From the NCBI GenBank assembly GCA_047601445.1, contig JASGJH010000001.1, forward strand, positions 1,152,001-1,216,000: 64,000 bases of DNA. The letters run 5' to 3'. Within the stretch, counting starts at the first letter, position 1. Each line of letters opens with the position of its first letter. This document shows, one piece after another, positions 5,286 through 62,209 of this stretch. The DNA is from Myxococcales bacterium (GTDB taxonomy: Bacteria; Myxococcota_A; Polyangia; Polyangiales; DASUME01). The notes beneath the pieces are model-generated. The model was not told where the DNA came from. It did not search any database and was given only the letters and a program-made list of their open reading frames with translations. Both the position numbers and the translations under genes were made by a program.

Positions 5286-6323
5286 GTGTCGCGATCCAGG
5301 GCGATTCTCGCCGACGCTGGCCCAGCCGGGCGGCGACAACTCAAGACTGCCCTCACGGAGTCCGGCTTCGACGTTCTCGAAGCGCGCACCTTCGAAGAAG
5401 CTTCGGCTCTCGTGCGGCGGGACGTCACCGTCGCGGTCTGCGACGCCAATCTCACGGGGGATGACTGCGCTCAATTGGTGGAGAGGTGGGACGCGCGCCT
5501 GCCGGTGGCGCAGGTTCCTCTGGTCGTCGTCTCGGGCCAGCGTGCGCTTGCCGTACGCCTCAGCGCACTCCGTGCTGGCGCTTCCAATTTCGTGGTCAAG
5601 CCAGCCTCGGCGAGCCTGCTGCTCCGGAATGTGAGCTCGGGCACCCGTGTCATGCCGTGGGCAGCCCCCCGTAGAGTGCTGGTGGTCGATGACAGCGTCA
5701 CTTACGGACACGCCCTCGCCGAAGCCCTCTCGAACGACGGGCACGATGTGGTCCTCGCGGTTTCGGCACAGGAAGCGCGTGAGTATCTCAGCGTCGATCT
5801 GCCTGATCTGATCTTGCTCGACGTCTTCTTGCCCGACACCGACGGCATCGACCTCGCTCGGACGCTGCGCCGAGCCGACCCAACGAGTCAGCTGCCCATC
5901 ATGATGCTGACCGGTCGCGAGAACACGCTGATCAAGCAGCGCGCGAGCGAAGCCGGGGTGTCAGGCTTCGCGTCCAAGAACACGCCGCTCGGTGAGATCT
6001 GCGCCCAGGTCCAGAACCTCGCGCAGGGTGGCCTGGCGCCCCCCCCGAAGGCCAGCGCCGGCCGTGCCCCGACTCCCGCCACGACCACCGGCGGGCCGGT
6101 GCTGTTTGCGCGCGTGGTCGCCGCTTCGGGGCTTTCGGAGGTTCTGGGACGCTCGACCCTGGAGCTTGCGCTGAAGCGGGCCGGAGTCGATGTCGCCGGC
6201 CTCAATCCCGACGGACTTCGCGCCGCCATGCCTCACATCGAGCAAGCATTGAACACGTTTCTGCCGCAGTCGGAGATCCGCAAGCGGGTAATGGCGATCT
6301 CCGCGATCGCACGGGAAGGCTAG
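5286..6323 (+). CDS. Response regulator with two receiver domains and a small C-terminal helical domain
   Basis: REC1 (AVCD..FVVKP) and REC2 ([14 protein letters not shown]). GTG start follows GGAGG; the start is uncertain. Confidence 0.85.
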
Positions 6324-60749: not shown

Positions 60750-61066
60750 GCCCGAAGAGGAAAACGCACCAGGCATTTCAGCAGGTGTTGTGTCGGTTGA
60801 CTTCAGCAGGCTGGATTTCTCCAAGAAGCGAGTTCTCCCCGGGTACGCCGCAGTTCGCAATGTCGCCTTCGCCCCGGGGCGAAACACGGCGTGTCTGGGC
60901 ACGGGTAGGCGTGGGAGACGAGTGTTACCTGGCTGCCGTCCACGCGATCAGAGCTCAATACTGTTGAGCTCGTTGCCCCGGCATATGCGCATGTGCGCCA
61001 AGCCGCTCAGTGGTTTGAGTTGGCACGCGACGACGCACGTGCCCTCGTGCCTCCCGGGAGAGCCGG

Positions 61067-61120
61067 GCGACCCGACATTTCTAAAAACCGCGATCCCGAC
61101 ATCTCTATAAAACGCCAACA
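61067..61120 (-). mobile_element. Orphan terminal inverted repeat of an IS1202/ISNCY-like insertion sequence
   Basis: Minus strand TGTTGGCGTTTTATAGAGATGTCGGG..TAGAAATGTCGGG: TGT terminus plus two TAGA(A/G)ATGTCGGG repeats 24 bp apart; no transposase seen. Confidence 0.6.
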
Positions 61121-61130
61121 CAACCACTTC

Positions 61131-62186
61131 GGAGAGTAGACGCCGGGATCGCTCCCGGGGCCCCTCGCAGAACCGTACGTGCGGCTTTCCCGCATACGGC
61201 TCCCAGCTCAGCGCATCCGCGTCGGGGAAGGGTACAGGTGATGGACGACTCGAGGCTTAGGGATGATGTATCCCTCTTTCCAAAGCTGCAGGAAGCGCGC
61301 CCATGAGAACGACTTGCGCTGACTCCGCCGATTCAGCCACTTAAACAGCAGTTTCGCCGCCTGTCGGAAGTAGGCCCGGAGCGATCCGGAGTTCCCGCTG
61401 ACGCCGTAGTACTGCTCGTAGCCGCGTAGGTGTTGCCGAGCGTAGTCGAGCATGGCGCGCCCACCATCGGTTCGCAGACTCTTCAACCGCTCCTTGAGCC
61501 CCTGCAGCTGCCGCCGCATTCGCTTCGCGTCCGTGCGCCGGCCGACCACGAACTGGCCGGCTTGGCTCTTGGCTGCGTAGTGAGTGAACCCGAGGAAGGT
61601 GAAGGTCTCTGGTCGTGTTCGATTTTCTCGGTGGCAGTGCTGTTGGGCGAAGCGCCCAAAGCGCAGCATCTTCGTCTTGGAGGGTTCAGCCTCCAGGGCG
61701 AACTGACCGAGTCGCGCCACAAGCTCCGAGTGGAACCGCGTCGCGTCTTCCTGCTTCTCGAAGCACGCCACGAAGTCGTCCGCGTAGCGGATGAGCTCGG
61801 CGTCTCCGGTGCAGGTCTTTCGAAAGCGTCCCTCGAACCACCAGTCGAGCACGTAGTGAAGGTAGATGTTCGCGAGCACGGGCGACACGAGTCCGCCTTG
61901 CGGCGTTCCCGTGTTCGTGATCTCGAACGCACCATCGTGCATGACGCCAGCTTTGAGAAACCGTCGCAGCGTCCGCACAAAGTGCGGGTCCGCAATCCGG
62001 TGCTCGAGAAATCGCAGCATGTGATCATGGTTGACCTCATTGAAGAAGCCTTTGATGTCGGCTTCGACGACCCAGCCGATTCTCTGTTACCCGGGCGCAC
62101 GCAAGGCTGGATACCGGGCTCCCGGCTACGGGCTTCCCGGGGAGGAGTCCCACCTCCTAGGCAAACATGTCTTAACCAGTCACTTC
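61131..62186 (-). mobile_element. Group II intron, internally deleted
   Basis: Domain V GAGCCGTATGCGGGAAAGCCGCACGTACGGTTC (61202-61170); DVI with bulged A ending CTACTCTCC; RT/X remnant; about 100 nt of DI-like 5' sequence (GGAGGTGGGACTCCTCC hairpin, CCTTGCGTG..GGGTAAC). The 5' boundary is inferred. Confidence 0.85.
61208..62086 (-). pseudogene. ltrA: Group II intron reverse transcriptase/maturase, 5'-truncated (RT3-7 plus X, no endonuclease)
   Basis: VVEADIKGFF, GTPQGGLVSPVLANIYLH, RYADD, FTFLGF, WLNRRSQ; in-frame TAA at 62089-62087; RT0-2 absent. Confidence 0.9.
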
Positions 62187-62209
62187 GCAGAAGATAGATT
62201 ATGTAAACC
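62182..62209 (+). other. dif: dif-like XerC/XerD recombination site
   Basis: ACTTCGCAGAA-GATAGA-TTATGTAAACC, an 11-6-11 layout resembling dif (E. coli GGTGCGCATAA-TGTATA-TTATGTTAAAT); AT-rich; inner XerC arm reads CAGAA instead of CATAA. Confidence 0.7.

Follow-up and report, generated by a model that had tools for sequence, protein, structure and literature searches.

An internally deleted group II intron at the chromosomal dif site of a Myxococcales bacterium

The intron remnant and the adjoining dif site

The DNA considered here (the window) is a stretch of 64,000 nucleotides (nt) from a Myxococcales bacterium. It comprises positions 1,152,001-1,216,000 of a genome, called G000 below, that consists of a single 9.5-Mb contig. 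Close to the right-hand end of the window, the minus strand carries the remnant of a group II intron, and the 5' end of this remnant forms part of a 28-bp site with the 11-6-11 organization (XerC arm, centre, XerD arm) of dif. We consider it highly probable that the remnant derives from a bacterial group II intron of the endonuclease-less type, that it is internally deleted and dead, and that its lineage homes into XerC/XerD sites. Related genomes are designated G0xx, their contigs G0xx:Cxxx, and individual loci in these metagenome or relative sequences Lxxx. Positions refer to the window unless stated otherwise, and a slash within a sequence marks an insertion point or splice junction.

Over both of its retained parts, the window intron is 86-90% identical to L047, L048 and L049 (about 90% nucleotide identity to L048). 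The parts correspond to L048 positions 79-183 (window 62086-62192) and 1081-2039 (window 61128-62086). Because they lie 897 nt apart in L048, about that length must be missing from the window copy: most of domain I with its exon-binding site 1 (EBS1), domains II and III, the start of domain IV, and the N-terminus of the reverse transcriptase (RT; first ~158 codons). Homology of the G005, L083 and G009 copies likewise breaks at window position 62086. The remaining RT matches Pfam RVT_1 (E 6.2e-22) at profile positions 69-204 of 205 only and lacks RT0, RT1 and the start of RT2. As for the domain I-IV ribozyme core, which in the relatives L039, L041 and L043 matches Rfam RF02005 at 110-124 bits, the window copy keeps the first ~100 nt, and a core of these (62101-62158) matches more distant introns too. 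The intron's 3' end reads ...CUACUCUCC, with a bulged adenosine 7 nt from the end. The full-length L048 protein has 449 amino acids and scores 346.9 bits against TIGR04416 (cut-off 300); that match extends to residue 411, after which an endonuclease (En) domain would not fit. No further copies of the intron were found in G000. Judged by its anatomy, the window copy is dead, and splicing and mobility would have been lost after the ~0.9-kb deletion.

Is the adjoining 28-mer the chromosome's own dif? A loose dif pattern, with one mismatch allowed, had a single match in the whole of G000, namely at this site. The cumulative GC skew of G000 has its minimum at ~5.7 Mb and a maximum plateau at 1.12-1.25 Mb, on which the site lies. 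In an unbiased octamer count, the most strand-skewed words of G000 were GGGGAGGG, GGGAAGGG and GGGCAGGG, with up to 83% of occurrences on the leading strand; octamers of the GGGNAGGG type have what we take to be the form of FtsK-orienting motifs. The cumulative orientation of GGGNAGGG peaks at genome position 1213225, the next motif (1218647) is reversed, and the 28-mer is located between these two positions. Of 19 such motifs in the 80 kb on its left, 18 are plus-oriented; of 22 in the 80 kb on its right, 20 are minus-oriented. The genome encodes XerD (361.6 bits, above the curated cut-off) and has a second Xer-type recombinase gene (289.5 bits).

Relatives of G000 hold the same site. We searched 40 of them with the 4.1-kb surroundings of dif, and 11 gave a match of 25-30 nt at dif. 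All 11 of these genomes of the order contain an uninterrupted 11-6-11 dif with 0-2 differences from the 28-mer; the XerC arm reads ACTTCGCAGAA in seven, ACTTCGCATAA in two, AGTTCGCAGAA in one and ATTTCGCAGAA in one. We conclude that 62182-62209 is the true chromosomal dif of G000: it has the 11-6-11 form, is single-copy and lies at the terminus of a genome with Xer genes, and Xer action on it is predicted.

The flip in GGGNAGGG orientation is confined to 5.4 kb around dif and makes a clean terminus marker in this myxobacterial genome. One relative, G027, carries two dif-like sites: L027 (G027:C366) has conserved flank motifs and a divergent centre (GTGGCA) and XerD arm (TTATGTTGACT), and L026 (G027:C297) is a near-canonical dif 28-mer without the conserved flank.

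Features of the insertion locus (window coordinates) and loci of the related dispersed repeat
Feature	Position	Strand	Remarks
Native XerC-side flank of dif	61046..61125	+	aligns with left flank of uninterrupted dif in relatives; ends ...CAACACAACC
Displaced outer 5 bp of native XerC arm, ACTTC	61126..61130	+	on intron strand GAAGU, with which the 3' exon begins
Group II intron remnant, 1056 nt, GAAGUG...CUACUCUCC	61131..62186	-	internally deleted
Domains V and VI	61131..61204	-	Rfam RF00029 (Intron_gpII), 52.4 bits (gathering 40), E 2.9e-8, model 1-77 of 77
Reverse transcriptase/maturase remnant, 291 codons	61208..62083	-	RT motif 2 to C-terminus; stop 61208-61210
Internal-deletion junction, ~897 nt lost	62084..62086	-	L048-equivalent positions 184-1080
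Retained intron 5' end, first ~100 nt (5' domain I)	62087..62186	-	matches L048, L050, L051, L083, G009:C404
Present chromosomal dif	62182..62209	+	unique 28-mer at GC-skew/GGGNAGGG switch; genome 1214182-1214209
XerC arm of present dif	62182-62192	+	reads ACTTCGCAGAA; outer 5 bp (62182-62186) are intron nt 1-5
dif centre	62193-62198	+	GATAGA
XerD arm of dif	62199-62209	+	TTATGTAAACC
Dispersed-repeat loci	L110, L112 (G009:C251); L113 (G008:C661); L115 (G008:C581); L107 (G008:C272)		

Insertion point and splice boundaries

The heptamer CACTTCG stands on both sides of the intron (61125-61131 and 62181-62187). Excision of 61131-62186 joins ...CAACC ACTTC to GCAGAA GATAGA TTATGTAAACC, which restores an 11-6-11 site. 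Furthermore, 61046-61130 aligns with the sequence that abuts GCAGAA in six empty loci (G004, G007, G021, G039, G027:C366 and G009:C440). From this alignment of flank and ACTTC to uninterrupted loci it follows that the ancestral state was flank-ACTTC/GCAGAA-centre-XerD arm; at the slash there are now 1056 bp. Thus, the intron interrupts the XerC arm 6/5, and related genomes hold the empty allele. Given that flank and arm align with six dif loci, the rejoined site is more than a product of chance.

Two GACATYTCTA motifs (61074-61083 and 61098-61107), then ..CTACACA.., are included in the aligned flank. Such a pair of GACATYTCTA motifs, ~24 bp apart and together with ..CTACACA.., adjoins the XerC arm in seven genomes of several families (that of the window and those of L016, L019, L020, L021, L027 and L108). 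The GACATYTCTA motifs may serve the dif of this order as accessory sites or as binding sites for proteins.

The splice boundaries were derived from the pairing of the intron with its exons. An EBS1 hairpin lies ~205-225 nt into the full-length introns; among 11 sequences, compensatory changes occur in three of its six stem pairs, and all six pairs stay intact. In all 13 related introns compared, the loop of this hairpin is complementary to the exon bases directly before the G of G-N-N-G-Y-G. Uninterrupted pairing upward from exon position -1 extends for 6 nt in nine introns, 5 nt in three and 4 nt in one; in a control of 146 non-cognate loop/exon combinations, the commonest pairing runs were 2-3 nt. 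The loop and its target, the exon's intron-binding site 1 (IBS1), also covary: exon UUCUGC occurs with loop GCAGAA (L048, L083), and UUAUGC with GUAUAA or GCAUAA (L050, L051). A constant U 5' of EBS1 could form a pair with the base that opens the 3' exon (A in the outgroup, G here). By eye, no covarying base that would represent EBS3 was seen in the aligned introns.

Outgroup introns and empty sites fix the junctions further. Nine outgroup introns (~60% protein identity, unrelated sites) all start with GUUGYG directly after their own IBS1, and this GUUGYG aligns base for base with GAAGUG, GUAGUG and GCAGUG. At the other end, L052-L054 and L055 represent one outgroup intron with differing 3' flanks, and their comparison places the 3' splice site no more than 8 nt past the bulged adenosine; the junction ...CUCUCC/GAA fits this limit, which excludes the model shifted to a GUGAC start. 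Empty repeat copies in G009 and G008 read ...TTCTGC/GAAAC TGGCTGGCGCGGCCGAAGGGCGGA (TGGCTGG...), and the part after the slash is the exact sequence that follows ...CUCUCC in the G009 and L049 intron copies. From the EBS1 pairing and these comparisons, we place the intron at 62186 to 61131, plus or minus one base, with a probable start of GAAGUG and not GUGAC.

These ends depart from the boundary consensus of group II introns, 5' GUGYG...AY 3': here we find GAAGUG...CC, and in the lineage GUUGYG with a 3' CA or CC. We regard this as a deviation within the group II family and not as grounds for exclusion from it. In the wider lineage (L052-L056, L059-L061, L088, L039), the start is GUUGYG, longer than GUGYG by one base. 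L052-L054 follow a common ..GAAATC...GGGG motif at three different places; L053 and L055 have their 5' flank in common and differ in the 3' flank.

An earlier note on this DNA, made from the window's letters, had reported CACTTCG at both intron ends, a 3' splice site at 61131 deduced from a bulged adenosine at -7, a GAAGUG start, a contiguous 11-6-11 dif-like site upon excision, and a full dif-like site surviving at 62182-62209. The letters are as it described; the 3' site agrees with the Rfam match to domains V and VI (61131-61204) and with the 8-nt limit; the start accords with the EBS1 pairing (13/13), the outgroup GUUGYG and the empty copies (TTCTGC/GAAAC); and the joined sequence aligns with the six uninterrupted dif loci. 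The last claim can be extended, in that the surviving site is the true chromosomal dif. The empty allele, looked for in related genomes, was found as an uninterrupted dif with aligned flank in six.

Target sites of the lineage

The sample available for the lineage's targets comprises seven readable 5' exons (the window, G009:C404, G008:C575, L048, L050, L051 and L083) and seven distinct 3' flanks. An XerC half-site precedes the intron in every copy with a known 5' exon (7/7); all end TT(C/A)(T/C)GC, in one orientation. A full 11-6-11 arrangement, with XerD arm and 6-bp centre upstream, is present in five of the seven, e.g. AGTTGACATAA ACACTC TTATGC in L050. GAA opens each of the seven distinct 3' flanks and is followed in four of them by G(T/C), like in the native arm. 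Since the flanks beyond the sites are unrelated, several separate insertion events must have occurred.

The first five intron bases are GAAGU in the window, L048 and L050, GUAGU in L051, L083 and G008, and GCAGU in G009. Three copies thus match GAAGU at 5/5 positions and four at 4/5; the nine outgroup introns, which read GUUGC or GUUGU, match at 2-3/5. Most genomes have GAAGU as their native outer arm, and the three derived 5' changes (positions 2, 3 and 5) are all toward it. In G000, the rebuilt arm is letter-perfect with respect to the consensus and belongs to the genome's only dif: as intron nt 1-5 equal the displaced arm bases, a complete 28-bp dif stands at the upstream junction.

What the lineage enters in sister genomes differs in kind from this. 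The target sites in G008, G009 and L083 are members of a dispersed ~130-nt repeat with a dif-like core, of which G009 contains at least 10 copies and G008 at least 8; the repeat was not found in G000, G004 or G005. Its core consists of a doubled XerD-like arm (ATGTTTACAT TGTTAACATAA), a variable centre and TTCTGCGAAAC, with a G+C-rich tail, GGCGCGGCCGAAGGGCGG. The G009 intron is itself multi-copy, with contigs that break ~115-120 nt inside it. Repeats may be the lineage's everyday targets, with the chromosomal dif hit because the same arm is present there.

In G005, the canonical dif (L119) lies at the end of contig G005:C613, and this end falls within the XerC arm, 2 nt short of the insertion point. 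A second contig (L028, G005:C194:4150-5876) carries a 3'-truncated intron copy, 92% identical, with inverted dif-flank motifs ~670 nt from it. From these sequences, the G005 terminus looks rearranged around an intron insertion; its XerD-side flank does not align with that of G000.

In G009, one contig (L108/L120; G009:C440, ~6120-6204) joins the conserved dif flank to a repeat-type site, with centre CCAGTT, XerD arm TGTTAACATAA and repeat sequence beyond. Its outer arm and flank, GCAGTGGTTGT (GCAGT GGTTGT), are identical to the first 11 nt of the G009 intron. This locus could be the product of Xer-mediated exchange, the scar of an intron loss, or both; there is a hint of the latter process in that its arm has the sequence to be expected if mimic and displaced arm had recombined and the intron had been lost.

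When the 5' half of L048 was sought among 401 genomes of the wider order, with two candidates scored per genome, only genus g1 and one weak match were recovered. Taken together, the target sites suggest that the lineage homes into dif-like Xer sites, of which the chromosomal dif may be an occasional one.

The earlier note had proposed a lineage that both targets and preserves dif. Targeting held up, with half-sites in 7/7 and full sites in 5/7; preservation by design would go beyond the sites themselves, and the sister genomes offer mostly dispersed repeats. Its expectation for relatives was likewise borne out in part: their flanks are dif-like (7/7 half-sites), but GAAGU starts only three of the seven copies and GUAGU or GCAGU the other four. 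The EBS1 it anticipated exists, pairing with UUCUGC only; no convincing EBS2 was found.

Origin of the insertion and comparison with known systems

We propose the following route. On the strand running XerD arm-centre-XerC arm, the 6-nt EBS1 loop (GCAGAA; GYAUAA in some copies) and the U that precedes it pair with the six inner XerC-arm bases and the base that follows them (UUCUGC/G). Reverse splicing would then take place between positions 6 and 5 of the XerC arm, here into the true chromosomal dif of a Polyangiales genome. The first five intron bases, GAAGU, would replace the displaced arm bases, such that the cell keeps its only dimer-resolution site. A later loss of ~0.9 kb would have left the copy unable to splice or move. 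Retrohoming as the route of arrival is thus the probable, and not the observed, part of this account.

Pairing of EBS1 by itself cannot confer specificity, since G000 contains 1438 occurrences of the 7-nt pairing motif TTCTGCG; further determinants are needed. By analogy to ordinary homing sites of 20-35 bp, as described in a review (PMC4424553), the intron-encoded protein may read the dif centre and XerD arm.

The 5' terminus is normally the most conserved part of group II introns. Might it have been reshaped here by selection? We put forward, tentatively and with somewhat more doubt than conviction, that the lineage took the chromosome's dimer-resolution site as a homing site and altered its own 5' terminus to imitate the displaced arm bases, over 5 nt here and over as many as 11 nt in G009 and L083. 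The host site would thereby survive, and the direct repeat might allow scarless or near-scarless loss of the intron at the DNA level; G009:C440 would then be such a scar. On this proposal, the mimicry would be adaptive, and the rebuilt site would keep its Xer function.

Several observations count against homing into dif, or against its preservation. The mimic is imperfect (GUAGU, GCAGU) in four of the seven copies, and the repeat targets have GAAAC, GAAAA or GAACC as native outer arm. The G008 and G009 targets are dispersed repeats and not the chromosome's dif; the latter is hit only in G000 and perhaps in G005. As a result of the insertion, the conserved flank motifs now stand ~1 kb away from the dif core, and if these motifs matter for Xer function, dif would not be fully preserved. 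The sample is small (seven 5' junctions and seven 3' flanks), and two of the seven filled sites, L048 and L051, have no recognizable XerD arm. The abundance of the pairing motif, mentioned above, belongs here as well. No convincing EBS2 was found: there were only weak G-U-rich runs, with no column common to all four copies searched. The target strand forms no hairpin (the minimum free energy of the window dif is -1.1 kcal/mol, z 0.61), nor is there one for L050; no consistent hairpin was seen by eye in the outgroup 5' exons. Finally, the predicted ends, G(A/U/C)AGUG...CC, depart from the usual GUGYG...AY.

Other explanations deserve weighing against this background. The intron might home in the ordinary manner into a multi-copy repeat, with the dif of G000 an accidental look-alike and the 5' likeness a coincidence or inheritance, not a dif-saving device. 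The copy numbers of the repeat in G009 and G008, and the failure to find it in G000, G004 and G005, can be cited for this idea, as can the multi-copy state of the G009 intron next to the single, dead copy in G000; in addition, 2-3 of the mimic's 5 positions disagree with the native repeat arm. However, L050, and perhaps L051, occupy different dif-like sites whose flanks are unrelated, the three derived 5' changes all approach the native arm, and the arm rebuilt in G000 is letter-perfect within the genome's only dif. On balance, we find this explanation unlikely. A passive arrival, with an element that integrates via XerC/XerD in the manner of the integrative mobile elements exploiting Xer (IMEX) and without retrohoming into dif, has in its favour that sister genomes hold mobile-looking dif-like repeats and that in G009:C440 a repeat-type site adjoins the chromosomal dif flank, as though by recombination between sites. 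But G000 has one site only, with neither foreign DNA nor a second hybrid site; the intron 3' end abuts the remaining native arm and native flank exactly; and the repeat family was not found in this genome. Such an arrival appears extremely improbable.

The remaining alternative concerns the boundaries. It makes the intron run from GUGAC (62183) to ...CCGAA (61128), with a canonical GUG start, so that the intron would regenerate no arm beyond GU; the earlier note had offered it together with a 3-bp duplication. We favoured this intron at first, given the shared ...CCGAA and the end of homology at 61126-61128, and dropped it on the evidence of EBS1, the outgroup alignment, the 3' limit and the empty sites. 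It is true that all clade copies share ...CUACUCUCCGAA, that BLAST homology ends at 61126-61128, and that GUG is the usual intron start. Under this model, however, EBS1 would pair at -9 to -4 and leave three exon bases unpaired, whereas the nine outgroup introns pair up to the junction; the GUG aligns with the GCG of the outgroup GUUGCG; the bulged adenosine would stand at -10, while L052-L055 permit at most -8; and the empty repeats of G009 read GCGAAAC, not the predicted GCGCAAC. The common GAA is explained as conserved arm bases of the targets. We therefore deem these boundaries very improbable and retain homing between positions 6 and 5 of the XerC arm, by an intron that begins GAAGUG.

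How does such homing compare with that of known introns? According to the review, bacterial group II introns have three target habits: ordinary homing sites, terminators and attC sites (PMC4424553). The nearest conceptual analogue is the group IIC-attC lineage of integrons, also aimed at a tyrosine-recombinase site. Like its members (e.g. S.ma.I2), the present introns are apparently En-less and occupy such a site in fixed orientation and position (PMC4424553, PMC3001079). Unlike IIC-attC introns, they target XerC/XerD sites (dif and dif-like repeats) and not attC, show no evident stem-loop in the target, and have a full 6-nt IBS1 inside the recombinase-binding arm, which the intron 5' end rebuilds. 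The IIC habit of inserting just after a terminator or attC stem-loop was not seen: the 5' exon is the dif strand, without a stable hairpin. The solved maturases nearest to the L048 protein are of class IIC (7uim, 5hhl and 5hhj, 160-167 bits), with LtrA at 144 bits, only ~23 bits lower.

Other mobile elements share individual features with this lineage. RmInt1, found in ISRm2011-2, is an En-less intron that homes into mobile or repeated DNA, and sequence-specific homing by EBS-IBS pairing into a multi-copy element fits the G008 and G009 repeats; unlike in RmInt1, the sequence recognized here is a host-essential recombination site, of which the single chromosomal copy is occupied. IMEX such as CTX-phi, TLC-phi and the gonococcal island integrate at dif and keep it. 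As with these, dif is occupied by a mobile element, and a seemingly working dif persists alongside; unlike them, the present element has intron splice junctions, shows no Xer-mediated integration, and restores the site with its own terminal bases. The two flanking hybrid sites that are the hallmark of IMEX are replaced here by one site and precise intron junctions. Lastly, the shifted 5' splice sites of C.te.I1 and of fungal rRNA introns (PMC4424553) resemble those of the present introns in that position 1 does not begin GUGYG. Unlike those introns, this lineage has one extra base throughout (GUUGYG, G[A/U/C]AGUG), not many bases upstream, and its EBS1 pairing is normal. No report of a group II intron in dif, or of homing into Xer sites, was found in the literature searched, including PMC6053426, PMC6764390 and PMC8987985.

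If our reading is correct, XerC/XerD sites would be a fourth target habit beside the three named in the review (PMC4424553). An intron 5' end that restores the site would illustrate how an essential non-coding site may be occupied by a retroelement with little cost to the host, and it would reveal an unexpected freedom at the terminal bases of the intron. To our knowledge, a dif-type target is present in nearly every bacterial chromosome and is never lost. The site lies where replication forks meet, a location that suits introns in need of a fork for priming. The pairing between EBS1 and the XerC arm provides a testable rule, and the lineage may offer a natural example of a safe-harbour insertion site.

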